In this document: piece by piece, positions 8,076 to 35,058 of the stretch | Position numbering within the stretch: position 1 is the stretch's first letter | Layout of the letters: every line of letters begins with the position of its first letter | Source: Gammaproteobacteria bacterium | GTDB lineage: Bacteria > Pseudomonadota > Gammaproteobacteria > Arenicellales > Poriferihabitantaceae | Direction of reading: 5' to 3' | Assembly (NCBI GenBank): GCA_022826305.1 | Contig: JAJDVC010000071.1 | Location: 1-43,360, forward strand | DNA length: 43,360 bases | The notes under the pieces: generated by a model | The model's input: the letters and a program-made list of their open reading frames with translations, nothing else | Told to the model about the DNA's origin: nothing | The model's database searches: none | Made by a program: the position numbers and the translations under genes

Positions 8076-9050
8076 ATGAGATTTGAAGGTATCTATCCCC
8101 CGGTAATCACGCCTTTTCATGAAAACGGGGAGATCGACCATGACGGATTTGCCCGCATGGTCGAGCATCTTGTGCAAAGCGGTGTCCACGGGATCATTGT
8201 CGGCGGCACGACCGGCGAGTATTACGCACAGACGAAGGGAGAACGCATCGAGCTGATGCGCATTGCCCACGAGGTAATTGCCGACAGGTTGCCGATGATC
8301 GTCGGCGTCGGTGCAATACGCACCGAAGACTGCATCGAATACGGAAAGATTGCCAGGGAGACCGGCGCCGACGCGATTCTGATGTCCGCACCCTATTACG
8401 CAGTGCCGACCCAGCTTGAGCTGGCCAGCCATGCGCTTGCCGTTGATCACGCCGTCGGTCTGCCCATCATGCTGTACAACTACCCGGGCAGGACGGGGAC
8501 GATCATGCAGGATGCGTTTTTTGACCGGGTGGGACGCAGCCGGAATTTTTGCGGAATAAAGGAATCGACGGGAGACATCAATCAGTTGCACATGCTGGCC
8601 CGTGAATACCCGCACATCACGCTCCTGTGCGGCATGGATGACCAGGCCCTGGAGTTTTTCGCATGGGGAGCACGTGGGTGGGTCTGCGCCGGAGGCAACT
8701 GTCTGCCCCGCGAGCACATAGCCCTGTACGAGGCCTGTGTGCTCGAAAACGACTTCGGGAAGGGGCGGCGGATCATGTCGGCGCTGATGCCGTTCATGAG
8801 CATACTCGAGCAAAGCGGGAAGCTGATCCAGGCCGTCAAGCACGCCTGCCGACTGGATGGCCTGCCGGCCGGACCGATGCGGGAACCCCTGAAGGAGATG
8901 AACAAGGAGGAGAAGAGAAAACTCGAGTCCGTGCTCAGGACCCTCAAGCTTGCCGTGGCAGGTATCCTGTCGGAGAATGCCGTGGGCAAGTCGGATATTT
9001 CACCTGTTCAGGTAACCGGAGACAGCAATGTCATCTCTCTTAACTCATGA
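8076..9050 (+). CDS. Dihydrodipicolinate synthase/N-acetylneuraminate lyase family (class I aldolase/DapA-like) enzyme
   Basis: ATG at 8076 is preceded by GGAGGA. Motifs seen: GGTTGEY, YNYPGRTG and CGIKESTGD (Schiff-base Lys context). The GTG at 8025 was discarded. Confidence 0.85.
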   Translation: MRFEGIYPPVITPFHENGEIDHDGFARMVEHLVQSGVHGIIVGGTTGEYYAQTKGERIELMRIAHEVIADRLPMIVGVGAIRTEDCIEYGKIARETGADAILMSAPYYAVPTQLELASHALAVDHAVGLPIMLYNYPGRTGTIMQDAFFDRVGRSRNFCGIKESTGDINQLHMLAREYPHITLLCGMDDQALEFFAWGARGWVCAGGNCLPREHIALYEACVLENDFGKGRRIMSALMPFMSILEQSGKLIQAVKHACRLDGLPAGPMREPLKEMNKEEKRKLESVLRTLKLAVAGILSENAVGKSDISPVQVTGDSNVISLNS

Positions 9051-10554
9051 AGAATACCAGGCTATTGCCGGGCAGCTCGAGTTGCCCGGATGCGCCTATA
9101 TCGACGGCAAGTTTCGAAGTGCCCACAATGGTGATACGTTCGAATCCATAAATCCGGCCAATGGCCAGGTGCTGGCCAGCATCACTGCGTGCGGGCAGGA
9201 AGAAGTGGACTTTGCCGTATCGAAAGCGAGACAGGCGTTCGAGGACGGACGGTGGTCCGGCCTGCCGCCAGTGGAACGCAAGCAGGTGATGATCCGGCTG
9301 TGCAAGCTGATCGCCCGCAACGCACGCGAGCTGGCGGTCATGGAAAGCCTGGAAAGCGGCAAGCCAATATCGGAAATCGAGACCATAGACATCCCTGAAA
9401 CCATTCATTGCATGCAGTGGCATGCAGAGGCCATGGACAAGATCTACGGGCAGGTTGCACCGGGGCCGGATGATGTGGTTGCCATGATCGTGCGCGAACC
9501 GGTTGGCGTGGTGGCCTGTGTGCTGCCGTGGAACTTCCCGCTGATGATGATCGCCTGGAAGATGGCTCCGGCCCTAGGCGCCGGAAACAGCCTGATCATC
9601 AAGCCCGCCGAGGAGACCAGCATGACTGCGCTGCGTCTGGCGGAACTGGTCACGGAAGCCGGTGTTCCGGACGGGGTGGTCAATGTGACGCCGGGCCCCG
9701 GAGAACTCACCGGCCGCGCGGTCGGCCTGCATCCGGATGTCGACATGGTTTCATTTACCGGTTCGACGGAAGTCGGCAAGCTGTTTCTGAGATATTCGGC
9801 AAACAGCAACATGAAGCGGGTCGTGCTGGAGTGCGGAGGGAAGAATCCGTGCATCGTCCTGGATGATGCAGAGGATCTTGATGCCGTGGCCCGGCATGTC
9901 ACGAACGGCGCTTTCTGGAACATGGGGGAGAACTGTTCCGCAAGCTCCCGCCTGATCGTGCACGAGGCGGTCGCCGACGCGCTCGTGGAACGCGTACTGA
10001 ACTGGTTGCGCAACTGGCGGACCGGACCGCCGCTGGATCCGGCGAGCAGGCTGGGCGCCATTGTTTCGGAAAAACAGCATCGGCAGATTCTCGACCATGT
10101 CAAGTCGGCAGGCCAGCAGGGGGCAACCGTTCTCGCAGGAGGAAAGGCCATGGATATCGGCAGCGGGTTCTTCATCGAACCGACCGTACTTGCCGACGTC
10201 ACGCCGGACATGGCGGTTGCCAGGGAGGAAATTTTCGGACCCGTTCTGGCGGTCATCGCTGTGGGTGACGAGAGTCAGGCGCTCAGGATTGCCAATGATA
10301 CATGCTACGGACTGACGGCATCGCTTTTCACGGCCAGCCTGAGGCGGGCCCATCGCATGTCCCGCGCCATCCGGGCCGGCACCGTGACCGTCAACTGTTT
10401 CGGGGAAGGCAATATCACCACGCCCTTCGGCGGCTACAAGCAGTCGGGATTCGGGGGACGGGACAACTCCCTGCATGCCCATGATCAGTATACGGAACTG
10501 AAGACCATCTGGATTGATGTATCCGATCAGGATACGGGCGAGGATCCGGTATAG
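9028..10554 (+). CDS. NAD(P)-dependent aldehyde dehydrogenase (PuuC / semialdehyde dehydrogenase-like)
   Basis: 508 aa with WNFPL, FTGSTEVGK, catalytic Glu in LECGGKNP and catalytic Cys in GENCSASS. It overlaps the DapA-like stop by 23 nt. Confidence 0.9.
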   Translation: MSSLLTHEEYQAIAGQLELPGCAYIDGKFRSAHNGDTFESINPANGQVLASITACGQEEVDFAVSKARQAFEDGRWSGLPPVERKQVMIRLCKLIARNARELAVMESLESGKPISEIETIDIPETIHCMQWHAEAMDKIYGQVAPGPDDVVAMIVREPVGVVACVLPWNFPLMMIAWKMAPALGAGNSLIIKPAEETSMTALRLAELVTEAGVPDGVVNVTPGPGELTGRAVGLHPDVDMVSFTGSTEVGKLFLRYSANSNMKRVVLECGGKNPCIVLDDAEDLDAVARHVTNGAFWNMGENCSASSRLIVHEAVADALVERVLNWLRNWRTGPPLDPASRLGAIVSEKQHRQILDHVKSAGQQGATVLAGGKAMDIGSGFFIEPTVLADVTPDMAVAREEIFGPVLAVIAVGDESQALRIANDTCYGLTASLFTASLRRAHRMSRAIRAGTVTVNCFGEGNITTPFGGYKQSGFGGRDNSLHAHDQYTELKTIWIDVSDQDTGEDPV

Positions 10555-10714
10555 CCCTTGCCGTGCAGATCCGGTATGCAGGGTGCTGTCAACCAGGGTC
10601 CGGGGGATTGGTCGGCTACAGATGGCCGCACGGCTTCTTCCCTCACCCGCAAGTCGGCCGTGTCCTCCGGTCGCCAGCAGTCGGCGCGGCCGGAAATGTC
10701 ATGAACCGGAGGCG

Positions 10715-12055
10715 ATGGAGCGGGAAATGAATCAGGTGCTTGCCGCAAGGGAAATTCCCAATTTCGAGACGCGTTCCGGATGGTATGCAGTTCTGCCATC
10801 TCCGCCTGCCGCACGTCGGCTTGAGCAGGACGTGCATGCCGATGTGGTGATTGTCGGGGCCGGGTTCGCCGGACTGACCGCCGCGCGCCGATTGCGGCAG
10901 CAGGCGCCGGATTGCAGGATTGTGGTCCTGGAGGCCCAGCGCATCGCGTGGGGAACCTCCGGACGCAACAGCGGCTTCATGATCGACCTGCCGCATCATC
11001 TTCGAGGCAGCGACTACCGCGGTTCGCATGATCGGGACAGGCGGGAGATCGCCATGAATCGTCACGCCATGGATTATGCCCGCTCGATGGTCGGGGAGTT
11101 CGGCCTGCAGGGGTCGATCAGTCATGCAGGAAGGATAAGCGCCGCCGCAAGTCCCGGCGGGATGAAGATGCTGGAAGACTACGTGAAACATCTCGCCGGG
11201 CTTGGGGAGGACTGCACGGTCCTCGACACTGAACAGGTCAGGGAGATTACGGGCACCGGCTACTATCTGGGCGGTATCCATCTGCCGGGTTGCCTGGTGA
11301 TTCAGCCAGCGGCCTATGTGCGGGGCATTGCGTCGGCCCTGTCTGCATCGGTCGATATCTACGAGGAATCCCCGGTCGTGCGGATCCAGTGCGGCAGGAC
11401 TGTCCAGGCAGTAACGCCCGGAGGAACGGTGCATGCCGGGAAACTGATCCTTGCAGTCAATGGACACCTGGAATCCTTCGGCCTGTACCGCAGGCGTCTG
11501 ATGCACGTCGTCCTGTTCGCGAGCATGACGCGGGCGCTCTTGCAGAAGGAGTTGGGTGCCCTGGGCGGCGAGGAGGAATGGGGTATCACCCCTGCCCATC
11601 CCCTGGGGTCCACGGTCAGGAAACTGAAGCCTGGACGTATCGTGATGCGCAATCATATTGCCTACAGTTCCTCACCAGTCCCTGGAGGCAGCGAGCTTGC
11701 CAGGGCTGCCCGTCAGCATGACCGCGCGTTCCATGACAGGTTTCCCATGCTGGGATCGGTAACAATGGAACATCGCTGGAGCGGGATGCTCTGCCTCTCG
11801 GGCAATGACATGCCGGTATTCGGGGAAGTGGCCGAGGGTGTCTATGCCGCATGTTGCCAGAACGGGCTTGGCGTTGCCCGCGGCACGCTTGCCGGACTCC
11901 TGATTGCCGACCATGTGCTCGGCCTTGCAAACGACATGACGGAGTCCTTTCTCAACGCCGATGCGCCCCGCAGGCTGTTTCCCGAGCCCTTCATGTCAAT
12001 CGGCGCAAGCGCGCGCCTGTGGTGGGGGCAGATGCGGGCAGGCAGGGAAATCTGA
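10715..12055 (+). CDS. FAD-dependent oxidoreductase (DAO family, PuuB/gamma-glutamylputrescine-oxidase-like)
   Basis: DVVIVGAGFAGLTAARRL (GxGxxG) is followed by GTSGRNSG. The start is either ATG 10715 or ATG 10727 (MNQVL..., better SD spacing). The 10514 extension is Arg/Pro-rich and was discarded. Confidence 0.85.
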   Translation: MEREMNQVLAAREIPNFETRSGWYAVLPSPPAARRLEQDVHADVVIVGAGFAGLTAARRLRQQAPDCRIVVLEAQRIAWGTSGRNSGFMIDLPHHLRGSDYRGSHDRDRREIAMNRHAMDYARSMVGEFGLQGSISHAGRISAAASPGGMKMLEDYVKHLAGLGEDCTVLDTEQVREITGTGYYLGGIHLPGCLVIQPAAYVRGIASALSASVDIYEESPVVRIQCGRTVQAVTPGGTVHAGKLILAVNGHLESFGLYRRRLMHVVLFASMTRALLQKELGALGGEEEWGITPAHPLGSTVRKLKPGRIVMRNHIAYSSSPVPGGSELARAARQHDRAFHDRFPMLGSVTMEHRWSGMLCLSGNDMPVFGEVAEGVYAACCQNGLGVARGTLAGLLIADHVLGLANDMTESFLNADAPRRLFPEPFMSIGASARLWWGQMRAGREI

Positions 12056-12067
12056 AAGGTGGCTCGC

Positions 12068-13264
12068 ATGCCGAATACCGTGGAAACACTCGGCATGCTG
12101 CAGGCGCGCAAGATCGCCCTGCATGCCCAGCAGGTGCTGACACGGGACCGGTCGGGCAGGGCGATCGACGCCACCCGCTCGGCGATCCGGGCCCTGGGAT
12201 ATGTGCAGATCGACACCATATCGGTTGTCGAACGGGCGCATCATCATACGCTCTGGAACCGCAATCCCCGTTACCGGGCCGCCCATCTGGATCAGCTTCA
12301 GGCACAGGGGAAGGTGTTTGAATACTGGTCCCATGCCGCAGCCTATCTCCCGATCGAGGATTACCGCATGTGCCTGCCGCACATGGAACGGATTCGTGCC
12401 GGCGATGCGCTGTGGTTCAGGGCCGATCCGGACATCAAGCGCCAGGTGCTGGAACGGATCCGGGAGGAGGGGCCGCTGCAGTCGAAGGATTTCGGCAATC
12501 ATGGCAGGACCGGGCTGCCGATGTGGGAATGGAAACCTGCCAAGTACGCTCTCGAGACACTGTTCATGGAAGGTGAACTGATGGTGGTGCGGCGAAACAA
12601 TTTCCAGAAGATCTACGATCTCACCGAGCGGGTGCTGGATACCGGGGTGGATGCAAGGTTTCCCGAACCGCAGGAATATGCAGACTTCCTGATCGACCGC
12701 TTCCTCGGTGCGAACGGGCTGGGCACGGCAGCCCAGATCGGCTACCTGAGAAAGGGCATGACAAGGCGTATCGAGAACCGGCTCGAGGAGAGGGAGGTGG
12801 CGGGAGATCTTGTCGGCCTGGATGTCGCCGGCATCCGGTACCACGCCAAACCCGATGCGCTGGAACTGCTGGATCGCCCCCTGTCCCGCTCCAGGGTTCG
12901 CATCCTTTCGCCTTTCGACAACCTGGTCATCCAGCGGCAACGGATCCGGCACCTGTTCGATTTCGATTATCAGATCGAATGTTATGTGCCGAAAGCGAAG
13001 CGTCGGCACGGCTATTTCTGCCTGCCGGTGCTGTGGGATGCAAGACTGGTTGCCAGGATCGACTGCAAGGCCGATCGCGGGACGCAGACCCTGATCGTGA
13101 GAAACGTGGTACTTGAGCCGAGGCCCCTGAGGCGGGGGAAATTCTGCGAGGCCCTGAAACGGGCATTGTCGGAATTTGCCGTTTTCAACGGATGCGGACA
13201 TGTTCAGGTGGAACAGGCGCCGGATCGGCAAATCCGTGAGGCGCTGCAGGGCGCCGTTTCATGA
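12068..13264 (+). CDS. Winged-helix DNA glycosylase YcaQ/AlkZ family (DUF1006)
   Basis: ALGYVQIDTISVVERAHHHTLWNRNPRY...FEYWSHAAAYLPIEDY...FQKIYDLTERVL matches the family as I remember it. An ATG at 12068 lies behind GGTGG; a GTG at 12059 is also possible. Confidence 0.8.
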   Translation: MPNTVETLGMLQARKIALHAQQVLTRDRSGRAIDATRSAIRALGYVQIDTISVVERAHHHTLWNRNPRYRAAHLDQLQAQGKVFEYWSHAAAYLPIEDYRMCLPHMERIRAGDALWFRADPDIKRQVLERIREEGPLQSKDFGNHGRTGLPMWEWKPAKYALETLFMEGELMVVRRNNFQKIYDLTERVLDTGVDARFPEPQEYADFLIDRFLGANGLGTAAQIGYLRKGMTRRIENRLEEREVAGDLVGLDVAGIRYHAKPDALELLDRPLSRSRVRILSPFDNLVIQRQRIRHLFDFDYQIECYVPKAKRRHGYFCLPVLWDARLVARIDCKADRGTQTLIVRNVVLEPRPLRRGKFCEALKRALSEFAVFNGCGHVQVEQAPDRQIREALQGAVS

Positions 13265-13289
13265 AGCGTTTCGGGCGCAGGAGAGGCTG

Positions 13290-14171
13290 GTGAAACTGTC
13301 CAATCACAGCAAGGGGCTGCTGATCACCGGCATCGGGGTGCTGGCCATCAGCCCCGACGGCCTGCTGCTGAGACTGATTTCAGCCGATGTGCTGCTGATC
13401 ACCTTCTGGCGCGGCCTGCTCTACAGCGCCGGCATGGTGATCCTGCTGACGCTGTACTACAGGACGCGGATCCTGGATGCGTTTCTCGGCATGGGCAGCC
13501 CCGGACTGCTGATGGTCGTCACGTACTTTACGGGCAGCCTGGCATTCGTCTACTCCATTACCCACACGGCGGTGGCCAATACCCTGTTCATCATCAGCAC
13601 GACACCGCTTTTCGCGGCGCTGATAGCCTGGCTTGTCTTTCGCGAGCGGGTACCGCGCCGTACGTGGATAGCGATCGCCGTGTCGGGGGTCGGAATCGTC
13701 GTCATCTGTTCGGGGAAGAGCATCATGCCCGGAGCCTGGCTCGGCAACCTCGCCGGTCTGCTGACCGCCCTGTCGCTCGCTGTCGGATTTACGGTGGTGT
13801 CGAAGGCCCGGGAGCGCGATATGCTGCCTGCGCTTGCGCTCGGCGGCTTTCTGACTGCCCTGGTTCTCGAGCCGTTCGTGGAACCCTACCAGACGACGGA
13901 TCAGGACCTTTACTACCTGTTCATCATGGGATTCGTTCTGACGCCGGTTGCGGCCAGCCTCATGTATATCGGACCCCGGTACATTTCGGCTGCGGAAGTC
14001 GGGCTCATGATGCTGCTGGAGTCGGTGCTCGGGCCCCTGTGGGTATGGTATTTCATCGGGGAGAATCCCGGATCCCTCGTGCTGATCGGCGGTACCGTTG
14101 TCCTGGTCACGCTGTCCGTGCATGCCGTTGTCGGTCTGCGTGAGTCCACGAACGCAAAACCACCGTCCTGA
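13290..14171 (+). CDS. DMT-superfamily (EamA-type) transporter
   Basis: GTG at 13290 is preceded by GGAGAGG. The product is about 293 aa with roughly ten hydrophobic segments in two repeated halves, typical of EamA duplication. The upstream part of ORF 13176 overlaps the YcaQ gene. Confidence 0.8.
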   Translation: MKLSNHSKGLLITGIGVLAISPDGLLLRLISADVLLITFWRGLLYSAGMVILLTLYYRTRILDAFLGMGSPGLLMVVTYFTGSLAFVYSITHTAVANTLFIISTTPLFAALIAWLVFRERVPRRTWIAIAVSGVGIVVICSGKSIMPGAWLGNLAGLLTALSLAVGFTVVSKARERDMLPALALGGFLTALVLEPFVEPYQTTDQDLYYLFIMGFVLTPVAASLMYIGPRYISAAEVGLMMLLESVLGPLWVWYFIGENPGSLVLIGGTVVLVTLSVHAVVGLRESTNAKPPS

Positions 14172-14520: not shown

Positions 14521-15366
14521 CTATGCCCTGGCCGTATAAAGAGATGGTTCCAGGTTGCACTGGTCCTGCAGATGACCATGCAGAGTGAACATCCGTGGCT
14601 TTGAGCCAAATCTGAAAAGGCGGTACAGGAAGTACTGGGACGGATTTTCCCGGGAGAACGCCAGTTCGTTTTTCGTGACGAAAAACGGCGTGTTCTTTCC
14701 GTATTTTGTCGTCTTCACCTCGATGAAGCGATCCTTGCCGTTCTCCTCGCGGGACAGGATGTCGAAGCCAGCCGATGGCCCCCGGGTTTCGGATACCCGC
14801 TCGATGCGGTCGGCCAGCGAGTCCCGGCCAGCCCGGATGAGCCTGGCGCGCTCGAAGTTAATGATGAATTCTTCGCCGGCGTTGCCGAGCCTTTGATTCC
14901 GGGCTTCTCTTTCAAGGTAATTCACACTGGCGGGATTGGGGATGACCGATGTCACTGATCTGGCCGGATCGGCAGGTCCCTCCTTCGGCGGAGGCTCTTC
15001 CATCGCTGACAGCCAGTCTTCGACGGAAGGAATAATTGGATCAGCGTCGGAATGGTCCTGAAATAGCCCCTGCAGCGCAGGATTCCTGTCAAGATACTGG
15101 TAAACCGCATCGGGCAGTATTGACCTCTGGTAATTCGACAGGGGCTTGTAGCCGTCAATGTATGGGATGCCCATCTCGATCAGGACGGCGCTGATATTCT
15201 GATGCTTCCGTTCGACGGAGCCATCGGAACGGTCGTCGAGCCGCTCCAAAAGGATACGCCGATGTTCGGTCTTGTTGAATTTCTGGCCGGAAAGCTCAAG
15301 ACGGAGCATGTCGAAGTAGTCTTCGACTGTCGCCTCAACTTCGGTTCTCGACCAGTTCCTGGACAC
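14521..15366 (-). CDS. DUF3883-domain protein (PD-(D/E)xK restriction-endonuclease-like C-terminus)
   Basis: 281 aa with a GTG start. The C-terminus reads GFDILS...RFIEVKTT...PFFVTKNELAFS...YFLYRLFRF, which matches the DUF3883 pattern. The N-terminus (W.RTEVEATVEDYFDM...SVERKHQNISAVL) resembles the head domain seen on some McrA/HNH-type restriction proteins. Confidence 0.75.
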   Translation of the reverse strand: MSRNWSRTEVEATVEDYFDMLRLELSGQKFNKTEHRRILLERLDDRSDGSVERKHQNISAVLIEMGIPYIDGYKPLSNYQRSILPDAVYQYLDRNPALQGLFQDHSDADPIIPSVEDWLSAMEEPPPKEGPADPARSVTSVIPNPASVNYLEREARNQRLGNAGEEFIINFERARLIRAGRDSLADRIERVSETRGPSAGFDILSREENGKDRFIEVKTTKYGKNTPFFVTKNELAFSRENPSQYFLYRLFRFGSKPRMFTLHGHLQDQCNLEPSLYTARA

Positions 15367-25187: not shown

Positions 25188-25518
25188 TGGATGAACGCTA
25201 TCGGCATGAAGGAGAACAGTTGATCGCGCCCCCCTGACAAATGTGCGAAAAAATATTGGTGCCATCGGCTGTCCTGATTGCCGCAAAGACCGCAACCCCC
25301 TCAGTCTTGCTGATAAAAAACACCTCCCGGTTGCCGGCCCCGGCATAAATCCGTAGCTATCCCAGACTTCACGCTCGCAAGGGTAGACTGGCTATTCGGA
25401 GCAAGCCAAGGTCATGGCATCTGGAAACCATCTTGCCTTCAGGATTCCTGCTGATATTTTTCCAGTCAGTTGGACAGAGAACACGTTGATATGGCCACGT
25501 GGCATCGCCTTGCCGGTA

Positions 25519-27081
25519 TCAGCAACAGATCATGCTCAACAGCGCGCGTGCCCTGCTCATTCCGACATAGTGAAGCGACCGCAAGGTCTCGCTATGCCCG
25601 GGTCTGGGCATGTCGACAAGAACAACCACCTCGCTCTCAAGCCCCTTGAAATCCGTGATCCGTGCAAAACCGATGGTTCGACGACTGGCGTTGCGGGGTG
25701 AACTGTCGTCCAGGACGGAGATCGAGTCCCGCAAATCCCCGGACAGGGAAGACGCCCAGGACTTCGCAAACGGAACGGGAGAAAGCATGACGATGTCTCC
25801 CGGGCTGAATCCCCCGTCATCCATCAGGCCGCAGAGTTCGTTCTCCAGGGACCGGACGGCATCGTCTGCTCCGGCAACCCGAACTTCATGTACCGCAGGA
25901 CCATCTCCGACTCCTGAATTGCCCACATCGGCGTTCAGGTCGTCCTGTATCCGTCGCAGGATCGGCAGCGAATTCCGGCAGTTCGTCTTCAGGGGAATTC
26001 GCACCGGGCCGAAGCTTTCCAGATAGTCATGGGCATCGGGTACATAGGATCCGCACAGCCCGGACTGATTGTTGGAGTCGTGAAAAAAGCACCAGCGGCT
26101 TTCGCTTATGCCGCCATTCAAACAGCCATCCAGCCGGGCCAGCGCATCCATGTTCAATATGTCCTGGCCTTCATCGACGATCAGCGCGTCAAATTTTTCA
26201 ATGCCGGCACGCCTTGCTGTCACATGAATCGAATCCACCAGGCTGACAGTCAGCCCGGGCCCGGCGTTCCGTTCGAGGAAACGCTTGAGCCAGGGCGAAT
26301 GGCAGGCCAGTGCGGTTTTCATTCCGGACGCGCCCCAGCGTTTCGCCAGCTCAAGCGCCAGCATCGTTTTTCCTGTCCCGGCGCCTCCGGAACATACTAC
26401 CCGCGGGTTGGCCTCGACGACATCAATCAACCCCAGCTGATCCGCCGTCAGGCGAGCGATGCGCATTTCCACATCATGGGCGGAAACATGCAGCGGCACG
26501 ACAGCCTCGAAATCGGGTCGCAGGTGTTGCTGCAACAGATTCAGGTGCGAAGGGGTTGCGACAGTCCTGCGGGCATCCTTCGCACGCCAGTACCGAATGA
26601 ATCGTTCCAGCCACTTTTCGAATTGCCTGAAGTCCCGGCCGTCGGCAAGAACGGCGCGATCCCATTCGGCGCTGTCTGGAAGCCGTTCCACATCCGGCAT
26701 GACCACACCGTATCCGACCACGAAATTCCTGGAGACGGTGGCGGGAAGCTTTTTCCGCAAACCATGGAGTGCCCCCTCCGCCTGTCTGAACGGCGACTCC
26801 CGCAATCGCTCGGTTCGGCCATGCCTGTTCGTGGTTTCCCAGACGCCGTGACGGCAGGAAACGCCGCCACCCTTGACCTCCAGCACGAAAAGGCCGTCCG
26901 GTCCGCAGACGACGAAGTCGATTTCTCCGAAACGCTTGTCTTCATGCCGCGGAAGGTTGAGCGAGTGCATGGCAAACCAGACATTCTTGTCCGGCCCGGA
27001 AAATGCCGCGCACAGCTGGTCGAACATGCGCATTTCCGCATTACTGCCGGTTCCCAGGGGCTGGCTGGGGATCATCCGCAT
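25519..27081 (-). CDS. NERD nuclease-domain / SF1 (UvrD-like) helicase fusion protein
   Basis: The start is ATG 27081, or ATG 27075 forming an ATGA overlap with the upstream stop. The NERD core reads FGEIDFVVCGPDGLFVLEVKGG. SF1 motifs seen: SGGAGTGKT (Walker A), ALIVDEGQD (Walker B), KTNCRNS, KGLESEVVVL and YVGMSRARALL. Confidence 0.85.
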   Translation of the reverse strand: MRMIPSQPLGTGSNAEMRMFDQLCAAFSGPDKNVWFAMHSLNLPRHEDKRFGEIDFVVCGPDGLFVLEVKGGGVSCRHGVWETTNRHGRTERLRESPFRQAEGALHGLRKKLPATVSRNFVVGYGVVMPDVERLPDSAEWDRAVLADGRDFRQFEKWLERFIRYWRAKDARRTVATPSHLNLLQQHLRPDFEAVVPLHVSAHDVEMRIARLTADQLGLIDVVEANPRVVCSGGAGTGKTMLALELAKRWGASGMKTALACHSPWLKRFLERNAGPGLTVSLVDSIHVTARRAGIEKFDALIVDEGQDILNMDALARLDGCLNGGISESRWCFFHDSNNQSGLCGSYVPDAHDYLESFGPVRIPLKTNCRNSLPILRRIQDDLNADVGNSGVGDGPAVHEVRVAGADDAVRSLENELCGLMDDGGFSPGDIVMLSPVPFAKSWASSLSGDLRDSISVLDDSSPRNASRRTIGFARITDFKGLESEVVVLVDMPRPGHSETLRSLHYVGMSRARALLSMICC

Positions 27082-28724
27082 GACGGGCCGTTTCCGTTTT
27101 CCCTTGCGTCGATTTCCTCCAGACTGGCAAGTTTGTCGCGCACGCCGGACTCGATCTGAGGATCTATCGGCGGCCATTGACCGAGACGGCGCAGAAATTT
27201 GGCCTCATCCATTTCTTCCGTGACAGTTGATAGCCTGCCCGGCAACACTACCTGCAAGCCCTTTCGTTCAAGGTTTTCAGGTAAATAGCCATCCTCCAGA
27301 GTGATGTGTGTCTGAATGCAGTCGTTCCACCTGCATTTGCTCGCGAGTTCCATGGCTACATCCTTCTTCATGCGGCACCACTCACCACCTGGTGAAGTAA
27401 AAAGTTCTCTCAAGGGTTTCGGGCGTGGCGGCGCCTTCATGTCAAGCTTGTCAGCTTGTTTCTGGTGCTCGGCATCTGCCATGCGATATGCCACATAGGC
27501 AGACATGGCAGGATCGCGCAACTCCCTGGGCAGCCTCAGCCAGCTGTCACGCACACCGAACAGGATTCCAGCAAGAAGATACTCGGCATCACTCAATAGC
27601 GGATGTGAAAATTCCAGCAGGTCCGTGCAATGCTCACGCAGGCAGAACAGTAGTAAAGGTCTCGATAAAGACCCCCTGTGCCGTTCAAGAAGCTCGGTGA
27701 TTGTTCCGCCACCGAGTCCGAGGAAACCACGCATGTCCGAGATCAGTTGCTCCAGACGTGGCCGAAATTCCATTGCCTGCAACAGATCGAGCTGATTCTC
27801 CAGATACGCAAGCGCCACATCAAGGGGCGTTTGCGGGCGTTCCTGCGTCTGTGCTGTGACCAGCGACTGGATAACGCCCCAAAATAGCCGGGCACCGACA
27901 TCGGCCTGTCCGGATACCTCAAACCCGTCCATCCAGTTGGGAAGCTCGGCCAGTACGGGGTCGCTTTGGACCAGTTCATTATCCTTGTCGTGCACGATTC
28001 CAGTTGCCATGCGAAAGGCTGCAAGCCCCAGATCACTGCGATTGGCGATGTGATACAACATCGCAAGCACGCCACCAAGCGCCAGCCCAAAGGCGGGAAA
28101 ATTGTCACTGCCGTCCTCAGGCAACTGCTCCTGTGGCTGCTTTGCCGGCCACGTGACCTTCGTGTCGGAGGAAAACAGCGAATCCGCAATCTCAATCCGA
28201 TAAGGGAACAGATCAACGTTCGAGACATCATCGGCGGCACTTTCGAATGCCTGTTTGTCCTCGGATGAGCAGAAGTTGACACTCGACAGCAAGGTTGTCG
28301 GTAATGGCGCACGGACAAGGAGTGCAATGTCGCCTAGGCGCCTGCGCCAGTGCGCGCTTCGTGAACCAACCTTTTGCATATCTCCAACCTCTCGCATACC
28401 TCCGTCCCGCGACAGTATCCGAACAGGGCCGGACAGATCACTCAAATCGAAAGACGCGATGCAGGGCAACAAATGCTTGCGTTCACTGGTAGCGTGATTC
28501 AGGGCATCAGCTGGAACCTCGAAATTGACATGAAACAAGGGGATCCAGCCGGGATAGACATCCAATGGATCAGCATAGTGCTTGCTTCGAAAACCCGCAG
28601 GACCCATCACCATGCCGGCAGCCAGCATGTAAAGCATGTTCTGGTGGTTGGTTACCAAGTGCCATATGCGCACCGGTTTTCGTCGATTTCGTGGCTTCCT
28701 TGGAGTATCTGGTTTCGTGGTCAT
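27072..28724 (-). CDS. Hypothetical protein, 550 aa, no recognisable motif
   Basis: A long ORF embedded in the operon. Its ATG at 28724 lies 3 nt after the upstream stop, and its stop overlaps the next start. The basic N-terminus (TPRKPRNRRKP) is followed by WHLVTNHQNMLYMLAAGMVMGPAGF. The C-terminal two-thirds is Leu/Glu/Arg-rich. Confidence 0.8.
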   Translation of the reverse strand: MTTKPDTPRKPRNRRKPVRIWHLVTNHQNMLYMLAAGMVMGPAGFRSKHYADPLDVYPGWIPLFHVNFEVPADALNHATSERKHLLPCIASFDLSDLSGPVRILSRDGGMREVGDMQKVGSRSAHWRRRLGDIALLVRAPLPTTLLSSVNFCSSEDKQAFESAADDVSNVDLFPYRIEIADSLFSSDTKVTWPAKQPQEQLPEDGSDNFPAFGLALGGVLAMLYHIANRSDLGLAAFRMATGIVHDKDNELVQSDPVLAELPNWMDGFEVSGQADVGARLFWGVIQSLVTAQTQERPQTPLDVALAYLENQLDLLQAMEFRPRLEQLISDMRGFLGLGGGTITELLERHRGSLSRPLLLFCLREHCTDLLEFSHPLLSDAEYLLAGILFGVRDSWLRLPRELRDPAMSAYVAYRMADAEHQKQADKLDMKAPPRPKPLRELFTSPGGEWCRMKKDVAMELASKCRWNDCIQTHITLEDGYLPENLERKGLQVVLPGRLSTVTEEMDEAKFLRRLGQWPPIDPQIESGVRDKLASLEEIDARENGNGPSCG

Positions 28725-28727
28725 GAC

Positions 28728-29912
28728 CTACTTCCTGACAAGAATAGAGGGATCGGTGGGCAGTAATCCATCCACGACGGGACAAATATCGCCAGTACGG
28801 AGCAGCATGACCTGTTCCCGGGCACGCGCCACCATTACATAGAAACGTGCCTTGAGCGCATGAGGATCGCGTTTGGGCTGGTGTTGGTCGATATCAGCCA
28901 GGATGACGGTATCAAACTCCAGGCCCTTGCAGGACTGGGCGTTTATGACCATGATGCCGCCCTGTCCGAAGTTCGGCAATTCCTGCTGACCGGAAACAAA
29001 GGTCTGGATCGGCGATTTGTCATTGTCCAGTTCTGGATTGGCGCAACGAAGCGCGTCATCGAATTTCGTCCGCACCTTGTTGTCCGGAGTAATGATTCCG
29101 ATCAGCTTGCGGGGATTGCGGTCGCTCAACTGGAGGATATTGTCTGCAATATCAGCCAGTGTTGCCGTGTTTCCCGTGCCATAAGTCCATAACTCCGGCA
29201 CCGTGGCAGCAGGCATGAGATCGGGCAGGTCCGGCCTTGGACTGGCCGGATCCGCTGGGTAAAAGTGCCGGGCGAGCAGCGCGACAGGATACGCGTTCCG
29301 ATAGTTGGTTTTCAGTTCCAGCGTGTCATCGGGTTCAATGGCCAGCGTGTTTTGAATATCCTGGCGAGAGCTGCACTTGTCGGGGTGAATCTGCTGGTTC
29401 TGGTCGGCTGCCACGTAGAAATTCTCGAATCCCAGGTAAGTCAGTGTTCGATAAAAGGCTGGCGGCATATCCTGTCCCTCATCGATCACCAGAAACTTAT
29501 CGCCTTGATTTTCGATGTTATCCAGCGATTGGACCTGTTGTTCGACGGCATTCCAGTCTATTGGTCGATATCCTCCCGGATCATCTGGCTCAAGCGTGGA
29601 AACGGATCCGAAAAAATGACTGCAGATGTTGCGGAACCAGGAATCCCATGTCTGGGCGGAGAATGTGTGTTCACTACCGAACAGATAACGGTTTGAATGA
29701 TTCAGCAAGTGATTGTAAACGAGAGTACGGTAGTTCTTGTCGTTCTGTGCGAGGCGTCGCGCCCGCAGCAACGCCACCACCGACTTCCCGGTGCCAGGGC
29801 CGCCGACGATCAGGTGTTGCCCCTCCACTGGCAACGCCAGCGCCTCATCCTGATCCTTGTTCAGGTCATGAATGCCGGGGAGGCTGAATCGGCGGGTACG
29901 ATCAACCGGCAT
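28728..29912 (-). CDS. Compact SF1 (UvrD/Rep-like) P-loop ATPase
   Basis: ATG at 29912 (Met42 of ORF 28728..30035) lies 2 nt after the DrmB-like stop. The product is 394 aa. Motifs seen: VGGPGTGKS, FLVIDEGQDMP, LKTNYRNA, SCKGLEFDTVIL and FYVMVARARE. Confidence 0.85.
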   Translation of the reverse strand: MPVDRTRRFSLPGIHDLNKDQDEALALPVEGQHLIVGGPGTGKSVVALLRARRLAQNDKNYRTLVYNHLLNHSNRYLFGSEHTFSAQTWDSWFRNICSHFFGSVSTLEPDDPGGYRPIDWNAVEQQVQSLDNIENQGDKFLVIDEGQDMPPAFYRTLTYLGFENFYVAADQNQQIHPDKCSSRQDIQNTLAIEPDDTLELKTNYRNAYPVALLARHFYPADPASPRPDLPDLMPAATVPELWTYGTGNTATLADIADNILQLSDRNPRKLIGIITPDNKVRTKFDDALRCANPELDNDKSPIQTFVSGQQELPNFGQGGIMVINAQSCKGLEFDTVILADIDQHQPKRDPHALKARFYVMVARAREQVMLLRTGDICPVVDGLLPTDPSILVRK

Positions 29913-29914
29913 GT

Positions 29915-31738
29915 TCAGTTTGTCCCGAAGAATGAAGGCAGCCCGTCGGCAGCATCGCCCTTGACGAATCCGCGATCCAGCAGGGTATTGCCGTATTCGC
30001 AGGCAGGTTCCGGTACCAGCGTACAGGCATGACATGCAGCGCGGTTCAGCAGGCCTGGTCCTTGACCTTCATGCCTGCTGCAAACCGGATCAAGCGAACA
30101 CCAGCGTGAATGCTCCAGTGCTCGAATCAGGATGCCCAGAAAGCGTCGGGGTTCGCTCAGTTCAGCCAGGCCGCCCAGTGAACCGGCGATATCAGGAACG
30201 GCAACATGGATGAGGATACCGGCCATGGGCTCGAGTGCATTGGCGCAATAGATGCGCTCGATCAGCGCCGCCGCCGGATAACCACCCTCGGACTCGATTT
30301 GTCGCATCAGCAGGTGTGACAACGTGTGCAGTAACATGAAGCGCGTTGTTACCGGATTGGGGTCATCCCGACCGGATTGGGCAAATCGGGGAAGCAGTTG
30401 ATCCAGTCGCGAAACAATCGTCGGTGTTTGCTCCCATTCCTTGAGCCGATCCTCATCAAGCGCAAGGAAAATACCCTCTCCGTACAACTCTATGGCTGGC
30501 AACCAATCGGATTTCCCCACGATGTCCGGTGGTACCACTTCCTCTCCTCCCAGGCGGGTAAAACCCCTGAATACCTTCACCGCCTTCAGGCGATCCACAC
30601 GGACAAGATGGCGGATGCCCCGGACAATTTTCCGCTCATCAGCATCCAGATCGACCGCCATACCCAGTTCACGCCACTCCTCACTCCTGTTGCAGGTCAC
30701 CAGGTCTTCGTCCTCGCGCTGGTCGGGCAGCACCTCCAGGAATGCCCTGAACTCGCTTTCCCGCAATTGTCCTGGCGTAAGGTTCTCGCCATACAGGGGA
30801 TAGCCGCTGTCAAGATTGGCCAATGCAGTTTCGATATCGTTGAGGGTACAGCGATATTTCGTCGTCAGTTCCCGCAGGATGCCTTTTCTCGCCAATGGAA
30901 CTCTTGCACTGTCTATGCGACTACGATCACCGGAATTGCGGTACAGGCGATCCACGACGGTTCCCTTGCGCACACGGGATTCCGGCGGAATCACCAGAAC
31001 GGATTCAGCGACTGGTTCGTAAACCCGCGTGTCATTGATCGCCAGCACCTGCGCCTGATCCTTGTCACCTTCTTGCGTGAATTCCATCGGCGAAACCAGA
31101 TCCTCCCTGGTCCATGGCTGCATCCGACCCTGACCAAAGCCCACTCGTTCATCGCCACGAAACCTCGTTGCGGTGCGGCAGGCGCCGCACCGCAATATGC
31201 GTTCTTCGTAGCCACGTTCAATCAACCGTAATTGATCCTGCACCTTGCAGTTGCGTTGCGACGGATCACGGGTCCCTTGATGCGCGAGAAAATGCCAGGG
31301 CACATCGGCAAGGTACCCTTCGGGATGTCCCAGCACCCAGGGCACCTGCTCCAGCTTCGGGTGACGCCTGCAATCCTGATGACTGCAATGGTGTGCGTGA
31401 TCGGGCTGATTGTTCCGCCATGGCCAACGATACATGGCGCCACAGGCCGGGCAGCGCATCCAGGAGGGGAATCGCGTTGCCGGTACACTGGTGCCATCCA
31501 CCCGTCCATTCGCCAGTTCCCTTGCCACTGGTGGCTTGCACAATTGCTCCTTGATGCCCAGCGCGGCACGCACGCGCTCCACATACGGAATCGGCTCGCC
31601 AGCGGGGATACCCTGGCGGTCCGTCCATTGCCGGGTGTCCTGAACGACCACGAGTCCATTCGGCCCACGCACGATTGCCCCGATACCGCTATAGCCGATC
31701 AGGTGTGACAGGCGTATCGGAATCAGTTCATTGTCCAT
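29915..31738 (-). CDS. DUF1998-domain protein, DrmB-like
   Basis: 607 aa. The C-terminus reads LLHTLSHLLMRQIESEGGYPAAALIERIY ... WCSLDPVC ... AACHACTLVPEPACEYGNTLLDR, which is the DUF1998 four-Cys module. N-terminal Zn-ribbon-like pairs are also present (CPACG...HHCSHQDC and RCGACR). Confidence 0.85.
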   Translation of the reverse strand: MDNELIPIRLSHLIGYSGIGAIVRGPNGLVVVQDTRQWTDRQGIPAGEPIPYVERVRAALGIKEQLCKPPVARELANGRVDGTSVPATRFPSWMRCPACGAMYRWPWRNNQPDHAHHCSHQDCRRHPKLEQVPWVLGHPEGYLADVPWHFLAHQGTRDPSQRNCKVQDQLRLIERGYEERILRCGACRTATRFRGDERVGFGQGRMQPWTREDLVSPMEFTQEGDKDQAQVLAINDTRVYEPVAESVLVIPPESRVRKGTVVDRLYRNSGDRSRIDSARVPLARKGILRELTTKYRCTLNDIETALANLDSGYPLYGENLTPGQLRESEFRAFLEVLPDQREDEDLVTCNRSEEWRELGMAVDLDADERKIVRGIRHLVRVDRLKAVKVFRGFTRLGGEEVVPPDIVGKSDWLPAIELYGEGIFLALDEDRLKEWEQTPTIVSRLDQLLPRFAQSGRDDPNPVTTRFMLLHTLSHLLMRQIESEGGYPAAALIERIYCANALEPMAGILIHVAVPDIAGSLGGLAELSEPRRFLGILIRALEHSRWCSLDPVCSRHEGQGPGLLNRAACHACTLVPEPACEYGNTLLDRGFVKGDAADGLPSFFGTN

Positions 31739-31741
31739 GTG

Positions 31742-34700
31742 TCATAACGCCTTGAGCAGTGCGGTGTCTTCGACGTTGCGCAGGGATTGCAGGGCCACCC
31801 ACAGGCCACGAATCGGGTCATCATGGTTGTACAACAGGCGATCGCGCCCATTGTCCTTTTCGGGAACCTGGTACTCCAGCCGTCTTTGATCTTCCCGGCA
31901 ACGCTTGATCTCGCCCGTCCATTCGGCAATCAGGTAGTCGATATGCCTGCTTACCTCATCGACCTGATCGGGCGCTGACAGTACGCAACGTCGTTTGAAT
32001 TGTTCAATGGCCCTGGAAACTCTCGAATCTTCCGGATCAAGGCTGTCGGCGGAACGGTTATGCAACAATCCGGTCGCACCGTGTCGCATCACGATGACCA
32101 ACGCCGCCGGCAGGGCGCGCAGGCGGGCCTGGTAGGTATAAGGCGTGACGCTGGTAGGCTCGACAAAGCGGTAGAAGGCTTCATGGTAAGGGCGGAAGCT
32201 CTCGTAGTGTGACAGGCTGCGAGCCTGTTCACGGTAGTAGTTCGCGAATACCACGCCAGTCGCCGCGCCGCGCCCCACGCGGCTGCTGGCCTGAATGTAC
32301 TCCGCTGTGGTCAGTGGCTGACCGTTGATGATCATCAATGCCAATCGAGCCACGTCAAGCCCGACGGAGATCATGTTGGTGGCCAGCACGGCGTCCAGGC
32401 AGCCATGCTCTTCGCGCGTCCTGCCCAATCGGGAAAAAATCTCTGCATTCTGCGTCGCCGTCTGCAGGCTGGTCAGCTGTGCAATGCGCGGCGTAGAGCG
32501 TTCCTGTCTTTCCACCTTTCCGTCTTCCTGAGCCTGACCGACCATTGTACTGGACAACAGCCGCATGAAATCGCGCACATCGCTCGCAAAGGCCGTGTGA
32601 CTGTTCCCCACCCCCCTTAGACTGCCGTGATACACCACCTGCGTCCACCAGGCATCCAGCAGTTCCCGCTCGTGCTGATCACCCTCAAACAGCACGAGCG
32701 GAGCCAGCAGCAATGCTGCCGCCAGCGGTGCCAGGCATCTCTGACGATTCAGCATCGGCGCAAGATAGCCCACGTAGATTCGGCCCGGGCGTTGATCCAG
32801 AGGCACGGTACGGGCGAAATAGGCATCGTCGCAACTCAGTCCCGGAGGCGGAAACACGGCGACTTCGCGTCCATACAGTCGTTTCACCTGCTGGTCCGCC
32901 ATGCGGATGGTGGCGGTCGATGCAATGTACTTTGGATAGACACCACGCAATTGAAGCACGGTGTCGATGGCGGCTTCGTACAGACCGGCCACCGAACCCA
33001 ACGCACTGGCTATCAGATGCAGTTCATCCTGGATGATCAGTTCCGGTGGTCGATGCTGCGTGCCTCCCAGGAACGCATTGGCACGTTCTTCCCAGGCCAG
33101 CCTCGCGAACTTGTCCACCGTGGCGACCAGCATGGTCGGCGGTTCGGCATACAGGGCTTCATCAACGATATTGCAAGGAAGCACGCCATCCGGGGACACG
33201 CCGAAGCCGCAGTCCGGGTTCCGGCAAAGGAAATGGAAATGTTGCGTGGTGCTGTCGTAGTTGCGGTCTGCCTCAAAGTCCTGCCCGCACCAGGGGCAGT
33301 GGTCGATTGCCAGCTCCGGTTTTTCGTTGGCGGCAATCGCCTTCCTTACCAGTTCGGCGGCTTTCTGGAAGGAGTTGGGGCTGGTGGCCTCTCCCACCCA
33401 CATGCCTATGTTGATCGGCGCGGAACCAAGATCATCGCGTTCGCGCCGTATCAGTTCCAGCGCACAGATCAGGCGGGCGGCGCGCATGAACTGGTCGCGG
33501 GTCAGCAGGCGCAGGGTATAGCGCATCAGGACCGCGGTGCCGCCCCCGGTATCGGGATGGCGAAGACGCCGCAGCGTGATCTGGAATGCGATCAGGCCGA
33601 GGTAGGCTTCGGTCTTGCCGCCGCCCGTCGGAAACCAGATCAAGTCGACCGCATCTCGGAATTCGTTGTCTTCGTTTGCCACGGATTCCAGAGTGGTCAA
33701 CAAGAAGGCCAACTGGAACGGACGCCAGCGATAGGCGCCGTCAGCGCAGGATTTGCCCTGAAGACGATCATGCTGACGCATCTGATCCAGCATGGCGCGA
33801 TTGGTCAGGGCAAGGGCCAGCCGTGCCTGTGCATTGGCGCCCAGCAGGCGCATGCCTGCACGCATGCGCGAGACGGCTGTGTTCATCCGCCCGACCATGT
33901 GTCTTGCGACTGAACGATCATCGGCTGGAAGGTCCGGGATTCTGCCCTGTTGGCTGACAACCCAGTTCGCATATCCGCTTATGAAATCGTCCAGCTCGGG
34001 CAAGAGGGTTGCGTGAGCGTTGTCGATGTCCGCCAGTCTCACCAGCGATAGTACAGGCTCGCCGCCTGATCCGGTATCCGCCGTCATCTGCGGAACCTCC
34101 ACCACCGGCATCGTTTCGGAGCGCAGTTCAGTGACCTTCCCGTCCTTCACCTCCCAGTCGGCGGCGCAACCATGCCCGATGGCGTAAATGTGTCGTTGGG
34201 CGTACTGGAGTTCGATTTCCTGTTCTTCCCGGTCCAGCAGGCTTCGGTCGATGCGAGGATAGACACCGACATCGCCGGCGTCGATCACGCAGTGCAGACT
34301 GGCCTCGAACAGGGTCTTTTCCGCGCGTTCGTAGACGTAGTCGCTACCAGTCGCGCTGTCTGCAAGCTCCTGAGCATTGCAAAGGGAAACCGTGACGATC
34401 CAGCCATCGGCGAAGTGACGCCACTGGATGTCCACGTGCGCCTTGCCTGCCAGTTTTGAAAAGCTCTGGCGCTGATCATTTCCAGGACAGCTGATGTTCT
34501 CGAACTCCAGGAAATCCCCTTGCCCGGAAATCAGGTCCCTGCGTTTCCATTCGTTTTTGTATTGTCCTCTTTCATTTCGCCCTGTGCGTTCATACCTGAC
34601 GGCATGGCACAACACCTGGAACCGGATATCCTCGCCCCTGACAAAAAACGAGAAACCCAGTGACGATGGTGGAATGTAACGTCGCACAACAGCAGGTTCG

Positions 34701-34933
34701 GTTGTGTTTTCTCCCACACCATCAGTAGCACCCTCAATTTCACCAACATCTTCACCAGCAGGGTCAATGCCTTCGCCCCATCTGGATGTGGGGTAAAGCG
34801 CACCGCAAGGGAAACGCTCCGTGGGTAGCACGCCACGGAAATCCGGGCTATCAGCCACAGGATCAAGTGGGCCGATCAATTGATGGCTTACCCAGTCAAT
34901 CAGCCTCTTTCGTGGTTCAGTGAACATCGTCAT
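31742..34933 (-). CDS. SF2 DEAD/DEAH-box helicase, DrmA-like
   Basis: 1063 aa. Motif I is FPTGGGKTEAYLG, motif II is IIQDELHLI, and motif VI is YIQASSRVGRG. A Zn-ribbon insertion reads HCPWCG...FLCRNPDCGF. About 440 aa of N-terminal region has no motif I can name. Confidence 0.85.
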   Translation of the reverse strand: MTMFTEPRKRLIDWVSHQLIGPLDPVADSPDFRGVLPTERFPCGALYPTSRWGEGIDPAGEDVGEIEGATDGVGENTTEPAVVRRYIPPSSLGFSFFVRGEDIRFQVLCHAVRYERTGRNERGQYKNEWKRRDLISGQGDFLEFENISCPGNDQRQSFSKLAGKAHVDIQWRHFADGWIVTVSLCNAQELADSATGSDYVYERAEKTLFEASLHCVIDAGDVGVYPRIDRSLLDREEQEIELQYAQRHIYAIGHGCAADWEVKDGKVTELRSETMPVVEVPQMTADTGSGGEPVLSLVRLADIDNAHATLLPELDDFISGYANWVVSQQGRIPDLPADDRSVARHMVGRMNTAVSRMRAGMRLLGANAQARLALALTNRAMLDQMRQHDRLQGKSCADGAYRWRPFQLAFLLTTLESVANEDNEFRDAVDLIWFPTGGGKTEAYLGLIAFQITLRRLRHPDTGGGTAVLMRYTLRLLTRDQFMRAARLICALELIRRERDDLGSAPINIGMWVGEATSPNSFQKAAELVRKAIAANEKPELAIDHCPWCGQDFEADRNYDSTTQHFHFLCRNPDCGFGVSPDGVLPCNIVDEALYAEPPTMLVATVDKFARLAWEERANAFLGGTQHRPPELIIQDELHLIASALGSVAGLYEAAIDTVLQLRGVYPKYIASTATIRMADQQVKRLYGREVAVFPPPGLSCDDAYFARTVPLDQRPGRIYVGYLAPMLNRQRCLAPLAAALLLAPLVLFEGDQHERELLDAWWTQVVYHGSLRGVGNSHTAFASDVRDFMRLLSSTMVGQAQEDGKVERQERSTPRIAQLTSLQTATQNAEIFSRLGRTREEHGCLDAVLATNMISVGLDVARLALMIINGQPLTTAEYIQASSRVGRGAATGVVFANYYREQARSLSHYESFRPYHEAFYRFVEPTSVTPYTYQARLRALPAALVIVMRHGATGLLHNRSADSLDPEDSRVSRAIEQFKRRCVLSAPDQVDEVSRHIDYLIAEWTGEIKRCREDQRRLEYQVPEKDNGRDRLLYNHDDPIRGLWVALQSLRNVEDTALLKAL

Positions 34934-35058
34934 TACACTTTAATCCCGTCAAACCGTCATGTTGCCGGTGGTGAACACCCCGACCCATGTCAACCTGAGC
35001 TTCACACCCTCCCGGCCGTTCCCGAATTCCCTGATCATGGAAAACATGGAGCAGGGAG

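Follow-up and report, generated by a model that had tools for sequence, protein, structure and literature searches.

The ways in which DISARM kills phage and leaves self DNA unharmed are still unclear, and its phospholipase D (PLD) nuclease is dispensable in some systems. DarTG, a defence system of the toxin-antitoxin type, contains DarT, an enzyme that ADP-ribosylates thymidine in single-stranded DNA. We analyzed a five-gene cassette that shares its helicase core with the former and is predicted to contain a fold of the latter, encoded on the minus strand at positions 25519-34933 of contig JAJDVC010000071.1 (assembly GCA_022826305.1) from a gammaproteobacterium of the Poriferihabitantaceae; the whole 43,360-nt stretch of DNA is referred to as the window. 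In order of transcription, the cassette encodes a DrmA-type superfamily 2 (SF2) helicase of the YprA family (gene 1), DrmB (gene 2), a minimal UvrD-like superfamily 1 (SF1) ATPase (gene 3), an unannotated 'orphan' protein (gene 4) and a fusion of a NERD nuclease domain with an SF1 helicase (gene 5, NERD-SF1). The cassette probably represents an anti-phage system of a kind not described before, in which gene 4 is predicted to join a DarT-like ADP-ribosyltransferase (ART) fold to a domain tentatively assigned to the ADP-ribosylhydrolase (ARH) fold.

The head of the operon is built as in DISARM classes 1 and 2 (Ofir et al., 2018; structures 7S9V/7S9W, Bravo et al., 2022), with the same split arrangement of DrmA followed by DrmB. 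DISARM further contains DrmC (PLD), a methyltransferase (DrmMI, N6-adenine, or DrmMII, C5-cytosine) and DrmD (SNF2) or DrmE, whereas the cassette has the SF1 ATPase, the ART/ARH-fold protein and NERD-SF1 instead. The DISARM features present are the DrmA helicase and a DrmB encoded separately beside it, across a 3-nt gap; as the other three of the five features (DrmC, methyltransferase, DrmD/DrmE) are missing, the cassette should not be filed as DISARM.

In their predicted architecture, genes 3 and 4 follow the same three-part logic (small UvrD-like helicase, DarT fold, ARH-like domain) as DarHTG (Liu-DS3, TgaH-DarTG), which is composed of a UvrD-family helicase without 2B domain (DarH), DarT and an ADP-ribosylglycohydrolase-like, non-macro antitoxin (DarG3), and which protects E. 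coli only if the active site of DarT and the ATP site of the helicase are both intact (NAR 2026, PMC13069673). Compared to DarHTG, the cassette joins the putative counterparts of T and G3 in a single protein of 550 aa that ends in an additional domain, places the module between DrmAB and the NERD-helicase, and does not conserve the canonical catalytic residues. Its likeness to DarTG (LeRoux et al., 2022; DarT structures 7OMV-7ON0) consists in the predicted DarT fold of the N-terminal domain of gene 4, in which part of the beta1-alpha1 ribose-contact motif can be matched by eye; unlike DarTG, it has no macrodomain or NADAR antitoxin, and gene 4 falls outside Pfam DarT/DUF4433 by sequence. Gene 5 has the NERD PD-(D/E)xK domain and the compact SF1 helicase of NERD-helicase defence proteins (those associated with reverse transcriptases, and Nhi), but no reverse transcriptase partner.

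YprA-family helicases are also at the centre of ARMADA, TALON and BRIGADE, predicted or validated defence operons with unsplit helicases of the ARMADA/Druantia branch and with other partner genes (Bell et al., 2025, bioRxiv 10.1101/2025.09.15.676423); the cassette belongs to none of the three. TALON shares the combination of a YprA helicase with a NERD nuclease, but also has TPR-CSD and TBP genes, neither of which was detected in the cassette; ARMADA, the type II operons of which end with a GajB/UvrD-like helicase, needs BrxHII-like and PglX-like genes, of which the cassette has none. According to the same study, the DISARM-like clade holds 'many uncharacterized DISARM-like classes', and the cassette is presumably one of these; the gene set is not mentioned in the accessible part of the supplement text. 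No named system with this gene set was found in the literature, which is absence of evidence in the collections searched and no proof of namelessness. Neither PADLOC 2.0 (2023) nor NCBIfam 20.0 contains a model for the orphan.

DrmA, DrmB and the missing DISARM components

By sequence comparison, genes 1 and 2 are DrmA and DrmB, a split YprA-type helicase. Gene 1 matched PADLOC DrmA with an E-value of 1.3e-200 and Serratia DrmA in the PDB (7s9v_A) with 3.6e-125, and carries the motifs GGGKT (residue 437), DELH (636) and QASSRVGRG (881). Its score of 812.7 bits against NCBIfam DISARM_DrmAS is under the equivalog cut-off of 950, and the protein therefore appears to belong to a diverged, separate DrmA subfamily. 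Gene 2, with the motifs LLHTLSHLL (469), CSLDPVC (547) and AACHAC (567), scored 322.4 bits against NCBIfam DrmB_fam (cut-off 240) and matched Pfam MZB (1.7e-5) and the DrmB chain 7s9v_B in the PDB (6.1e-51).

For the remaining DISARM components, 55 open reading frames (ORFs) of at least 150 aa from the whole window, judged likely to be real genes, were scanned against Pfam. Neither among the five proteins nor among these 55 ORFs was a methyltransferase, PLD or SNF2 domain detected, and a crude scan for methyltransferase and PLD motifs returned spurious or metabolic contexts only, in agreement with the original observation on operon and window. DrmD and DrmE gave no PADLOC or Pfam match in the five proteins. 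When all flanking ORFs of the 70 loci described below were clustered and the largest clusters annotated, no conserved methylase or PLD neighbour emerged; the commonest clusters represented lineage-specific synteny, ABC ATPases, regulators and metabolic genes, with no family present in more than 8 of the 70 loci. A methylase encoded elsewhere in the genome could still act in trans.

Fold and conservation of the gene 4 product

The full-length gene 4 product had no match in Pfam, PADLOC or NCBIfam, nor in a profile search of the PDB, and its homologues, which number in the hundreds, are all unannotated. When 1.84 billion cluster representatives were searched with a profile, 623 were recovered at E <=1e-3 and 242 at E <=1e-30, nearly all 510-550 aa long, so that the family comprises at least 623 clusters at 50% identity. 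Some members (P0265, P0273, P0294 and others, as well as the orphan of locus L083, 7938-10133) have an N-terminal extension of 100-220 aa of unknown fold, and retain the five-gene context.

For structure prediction, two AlphaFold2 models were obtained, one from an alignment of 45 sequences (A2; pLDDT 79.7, pTM 0.83) and one from an alignment of 38 more diverse sequences (A3; pLDDT 89.0, pTM 0.90), and both were compared with the PDB using Foldseek. The predicted domain order is an ART (DarT)-like domain, an all-helical ARH-like domain and a small alpha/beta domain at the C-terminus. In the two models, the N-terminal domain matched Thermus DarT (7omx) with E-values of 8.6e-5 and 7.6e-5, a probability of 1.0 and target TM-scores of 0.62 and 0.55, and further matches were found to M. 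tuberculosis DarT (7yk3) and Tpt1 (7yw4); as a prediction from models, the DarT-like ART fold is solid. The middle domain matched human ARH3 and DraG in both models (E ~0.04, probability 0.96-1.0, target TM-score ~0.32), and its assignment as ARH-like is tentative. The original prediction had described this 550-aa protein as devoid of recognizable motifs, a description that has to be revised: with its two predicted folds, no other part of the operon is as informative.

At the sequence level, sub-threshold matches to the ART family 2CompART of Pfam were obtained for two divergent homologues (E 0.025 and 0.069), at colinear positions. Domain fragments of eight orphan homologues, scanned against Pfam and PADLOC at E-values up to 10, yielded nothing beyond these matches and no ADP_ribosyl_GH, and hhalign of the orphan N-terminal profile with seven plasmid DarT genes produced no meaningful alignment. 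The sole motif that could be matched to DarT, by eye, is the beta1-alpha1 motif IYHITHIDNLxxIL, which aligns gaplessly with orphan IWHLVTNHQNMLYML. In this match, T15 and N19 of DarT, which contact the adenine-proximal ribose (PMC9967889), correspond to the conserved orphan residues T25 and N29. The matches of the orphan in BFVD include baculovirus and iridovirus ORFs; an 'ORF28' family of baculoviruses, ascoviruses and iridoviruses, to which such ORFs may belong, has been related to DarT by Iyer et al.

The ART-like domain contains all near-invariant positions of the orphan, namely W21, T/S25, N26, N29, G37, K48, Y49/Y50, D52, G59, F64, E81, P140-L-P142 and N169. For the catalytic and NAD-binding residues of Thermus DarT (H13, R51, Y71, E160), no equivalent of E160 was identified; K48, D52 and F64 are conserved, with an equivalence that is only putative. 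In the ARH-like domain, conservation is confined to structural residues (L388, W395, M415) and does not include acidic metal ligands, and this domain is probably not catalytic. As neither the ART His and Glu nor the ARH metal ligands are conserved, catalysis by gene 4 is unproven. DarT itself, however, follows a non-canonical mechanism that depends on R51 (PMC9967889), and a non-canonical active site in gene 4 therefore stays conceivable.

The two SF1 proteins

Gene 3 contains the motifs GPGTGKS, VIDEGQD, KTNYRN and VARAR, with Walker A and Walker B intact, and matched Pfam UvrD_C_2 (5.2e-8) and AAA_19, the helicase part of the PADLOC model 'NERD+UvrD' (2.5e-14) and, weakly, HelD/HelR. Judging from its length, it is too short to accommodate the UvrD 2B domain, and it was therefore likened to DarH. 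In the evaluable loci, gene 4 is directly preceded by gene 3, of which two loci have only a fragment.

Gene 5 contains GTGKT, DEGQD and the NERD signature D...ExK (EIDF / LEVK), with D53, E66 and K68 intact. In Pfam, it matched NERD (8.9e-11), AAA_30 and UvrD_C_2; in PADLOC, the match to the reverse transcriptase-associated NERD-helicase RTasNERD-Hel (8e-36) extended over the full length, and that to Nhi (8.3e-7) over the helicase part only. All motifs that had been quoted for the five products in advance of this analysis were found when the translations were checked.

Conservation, spread and transfer

Homologous loci were collected in a scan with one genome per species, and the five window proteins were compared with these loci by tblastn. 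The resulting 70 loci are spread over Gamma- and Alphaproteobacteria, Desulfobacterota, Acidobacteriota, Spirochaetia, Planctomycetota and Gemmatimonadota. All 70 species-level genomes are metagenome-assembled genomes (MAGs), many of them from sponge, tubeworm or marine-sediment bacteria, with no cultured isolate among them, which may account for the absence of the cassette from defence-system catalogues. In IMG/VR viral contigs and PLSDB plasmids, the cassette was not found.

Within the clade of the window, the five genes occur in the same order and with the same stop-start spacing in 25 of 28 evaluable loci. In a divergent clade, with orphans of 31-38% identity, genes 1-4 are hardly ever missing and form the near-constant core of the cassette; NERD-SF1 is located downstream in 8 and upstream of DrmA in 5 of the 27 evaluable loci of this clade. 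Around four metagenomic orphans at 24-28% identity, the arrangement of helicase, MZB protein, UvrD-like gene, orphan and NERD-AAA_30 was found as far as the contigs reach. The conservation of the five-gene block, on which the proposal of a distinct system depended, accordingly extends across 70 species-level genomes and to far more divergent metagenomic copies. DrmAB is absent in only 2 of the 55 evaluable loci, one of which is clearly degraded. In locus L053 (Desulfobacteraceae, 8476-13317), genes 3-5 occur without DrmAB, as fits a module able to stand alone, and follow a 242-aa fragment of an AAA_21/AAA_15 ATPase; in L056 (8713-11512), a partial gene 3 and gene 4 are found alone between UbiD and Nuo genes.

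In blastn comparisons with loci of Gammaproteobacteria, Desulfobacterota and other classes and phyla, DNA identity of 81-85% was confined to positions 25518-34948 of the window, ending about 15 nt into the intergenic region upstream of DrmA. Judged by these borders, the cassette is a discrete, horizontally transferred unit. Locus L055 (JAJDZN010000245.1) contains a divergent copy of the cassette without DNA similarity to the window, so that the identical length of the two contigs (43,360 bp) is coincidental.

Defence-type neighbours occur in some loci, namely Wadjet, SLFN_AlbA_2/HATPase_c_4/HTH genes and the AAA_21 fragment. A very divergent copy (L080, 11578-17086; orphan ~25% identical) abuts a Wadjet-type locus (DUF2397, DUF2398/JetB, SbcC_Walker_B). 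A gene for SLFN_AlbA_2 and HATPase_c_4 domains, in part with a winged helix-turn-helix (wHTH), adjoins the cassette in five loci (L001; L021, 100-1632; L024; L031; L059, 11702-12907) and may be a regulator, as beside other defence systems. In loci of Vicinamibacterales/Acidobacteria that have no NERD-SF1, an ankyrin-repeat gene is located directly upstream of DrmA (L042, 2157-3650; L065, 2118-3605; L049, 910-3309); it was considered as a replacement fifth gene and rejected as probable lineage synteny, being found in three related genomes only.

Operon layout and surroundings

The coordinates of the cassette are given in Table 1. The five genes are tightly packed, with gaps of 2-3 nt or an ATGA overlap, and all four junctions read from the sequence were exactly as originally described: in order from genes 1/2 to genes 4/5, they are TGA-cac-ATG, TGA-ac-ATG, TAG-gtc-ATG and the ATGA overlap. 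DrmB thus starts 3 nt past the DrmA stop, and gene 3 starts 2 nt past the DrmB stop. The longest ORF for gene 3 has 435 aa and begins at 30035, inside DrmB; the 394-aa version from the ATG behind the DrmB stop was adopted, in agreement with the Pfam and PADLOC alignments and with the gene call in an independent assembly. Gene 5 begins at the ATGA, and a second in-frame ATG is found two codons upstream.

Table 1. Features of the five-gene cassette in the window (positions in nucleotides of the 43,360-nt stretch).
Feature	Position	Strand	Length	Basis
Gene 1, DrmA-type SF2 (YprA-family) helicase	31742-34933	-	1063 aa	
Gene 2, DrmB (OB-CON-DUF1998/MZB zinc module)	29915-31738	-	607 aa	
Gene 3, minimal UvrD-like SF1 ATPase/helicase	28728-29912	-	394 aa	
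Gene 4, unannotated 'orphan'	27072-28724	-	550 aa	
Predicted DarT-like ART fold, gene 4 residues ~19-200	28125-28670	-		Foldseek vs PDB, both models
Tentative all-helical ARH3/DraG-like fold, gene 4 residues ~205-465	27330-28112	-		Foldseek vs PDB, both models
Gene 5, NERD nuclease-SF1 helicase fusion	25519-27075	-	518 aa	
Intergenic region ribA (GTP cyclohydrolase II)-DrmA, presumed promoter	34934-35058	-	125 bp	

A consensus scan called neither a sigma-70 site between ribA and DrmA nor a terminator past the end of the operon, and its few calls fall within coding sequence. Beyond gene 5, about 180 nt from its stop, a short palindrome rich in GC, CCGGCAACCGG, precedes a T-run (25311-25345, minus strand); it may be a weak terminator that the scan left uncalled.

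The upstream neighbours of the cassette are GTP cyclohydrolase II (ribA) and an aromatic amino acid lyase, the downstream neighbours a glucose/sorbosone dehydrogenase (GSDH) and an ammonium transporter (Amt). Further off, at 10-19 kb from the cassette, the window encodes a NOV_C/DUF3883 protein (14521-15366, minus strand), a PIN_3 toxin-type protein (6367-6825, plus strand) and an AlkZ-like DNA glycosylase (12059-13264, plus strand); as metabolic genes separate these three from the cassette, the window is not an obvious defence island.

Discussion

On balance, we favor the reading that the cassette is a self-contained, mobile system against mobile genetic elements, most likely phage, that is related to DISARM and combines effector modules of the ADP-ribosylation type and of the nuclease type. 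From the original prediction of a distinct DrmAB-based anti-phage system, the distinct and conserved cassette without linked methyltransferase, PLD, DrmD or DrmE was retained; its second half, the defence role, stays a prediction.

In the reading that we favor, DrmAB would act as in DISARM, as an ATP-driven sensor and translocase, loading on invading DNA via ends or single-stranded DNA and not according to methylation status. Genes 3 and 4 would act like a DarHTG module with toxin and antitoxin fused in one chain: with the DNA engaged or unwound, the ART-like domain would bind NAD+/ADP-ribose and then either ADP-ribosylate the exposed DNA or gate the system, and would be restrained in cis by the ARH-like domain. 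Where present, NERD-SF1 would degrade the marked or unwound DNA. As no gene of the cassette can methylate self DNA, discrimination of self and non-self must rest on infection-specific structures or on a trigger; self would be spared if activation needed DNA structures specific to infection, or a trigger that frees an autoinhibited effector, as in toxin-antitoxin-type defence. A bolder version, which we put forward tentatively and consider possible, is that a system of DISARM lineage has traded methylation for ADP-ribosylation, with DrmAB and the UvrD-like motor exposing or tracking foreign DNA, the fused DarT/ARH protein of writer/eraser type marking it through a non-canonical active site formed by N26, N29, K48, D52 and N169, and the NERD protein reading or destroying what is marked.

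Several observations weigh against the favored reading. The likeness to DarHTG is one of architecture only. Pfam DarT and PADLOC DarT gave no match, and neither did a small DarT alignment compared profile to profile. The position of the canonical NAD-binding His of DarT, H13, is occupied in the orphan by L23, a conserved Leu or Phe, and no Glu is conserved at the expected C-terminal strand, E161, E178 and E181 not being family-wide. The match to ARH proteins is weak (E ~0.04, TM-score ~0.3), and the acidic metal-binding residues are not conserved. In the divergent clade, 10 of 27 loci have no NERD-SF1 within 10 kb. Finally, the flanks of the cassette in the window are metabolic, and not those of a defence island.

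In a rival reading, DrmAB would sense the invader and NERD-SF1 would be the sole effector, replacing DrmC as originally proposed, while gene 4, catalytically dead, would serve as a scaffold of ART/ARH fold or as a ligand sensor, with no role other than coupling or regulating the helicases. The NERD D/E/K residues and both Walker motifs are intact, which makes an effector role of gene 5 plausible, and the loss of the ART triad His and Glu, the absence of the ARH metal ligands and the lack of an above-threshold ART match at the sequence level are all as expected for a protein that does not catalyze. The replacement of DrmC by gene 5 is insecure, however, because gene 5, unlike the invariably present gene 4, is missing from those 10 divergent loci, and in 5 others it precedes DrmA. 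The ART-like domain moreover has invariant polar residues (N26, N29, K48, D52, N169), as in a working pocket, and as DarT itself is non-canonical and Arg-dependent (PMC9967889), loss of the classical triad is not decisive; we regard a sole-effector role of NERD-SF1 as possible but doubtful. Less probable still is that the operon unites two independent systems, a minimal DrmAB unit and a DarHTG-like/NERD-helicase unit of genes 3-5, which were co-transferred and are perhaps synergistic. Such independence would suit the locus in which genes 3-5 stand without DrmAB (L053) and that in which a partial gene 3 stands with gene 4 (L056), and it has precedent in DarHTG, which functions alone in E. coli, and in the frequent co-localization and synergy of defence systems. 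Against it, the 2-3 nt spacing between DrmB and gene 3 is conserved, the five genes co-occur down to about 25% orphan identity, DrmAB is missing in no more than the two loci mentioned above, and DrmAB alone would be left without a known effector.

Two further explanations appear very unlikely. One is that the cassette is what remains of a canonical DISARM, decayed or incomplete, whose methyltransferase, DrmC and DrmD/DrmE were lost or are encoded in another part of the genome. DrmA and DrmB are indeed true homologues of the Serratia class 1 proteins, but the same set without methyltransferase and PLD, with intact ORFs, recurs in the 70 species-level genomes and in deep-branching metagenomic copies, the DNA homology stops exactly at the operon borders, and a DrmA under the NCBIfam equivalog cut-off points to a separate subfamily, not to a recent remnant. 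The other is a housekeeping or stress-related DNA-repair module like MrfAB, of the repair branch of YprA, that processes ADP-ribosylated or otherwise damaged DNA. The YprA family does include repair enzymes, the flanks are metabolic, and the AlkZ-like glycosylase is encoded 12 kb away; yet the patchy spread over many phyla, at 70-87% protein identity and with sharp borders, is that of a horizontally moved accessory element, the split into DrmA and DrmB is typical of the DISARM defence branch, and the NERD-helicase matches defence-associated models.

With DrmAB as the only part kept from DISARM, the cassette offers a clean comparison by which sensing by DrmAB can be separated from the execution of immunity. 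By predicted fold, it also links DISARM with DarTG/DarHTG, defence lineages treated separately so far, and for a large family devoid of annotation, with no fewer than 623 clusters at 50% identity, a first hypothesis on structure and function is now at hand. Nucleic-acid ADP-ribosyltransferases are already in use for genome editing, and if the ART-like domain is active without the classical triad, their catalytic repertoire would be wider. Should the cassette indeed mark foreign DNA by ADP-ribosylation, this would be a new, helicase-guided marking of non-self DNA, in a family known so far only from uncultivated bacteria.

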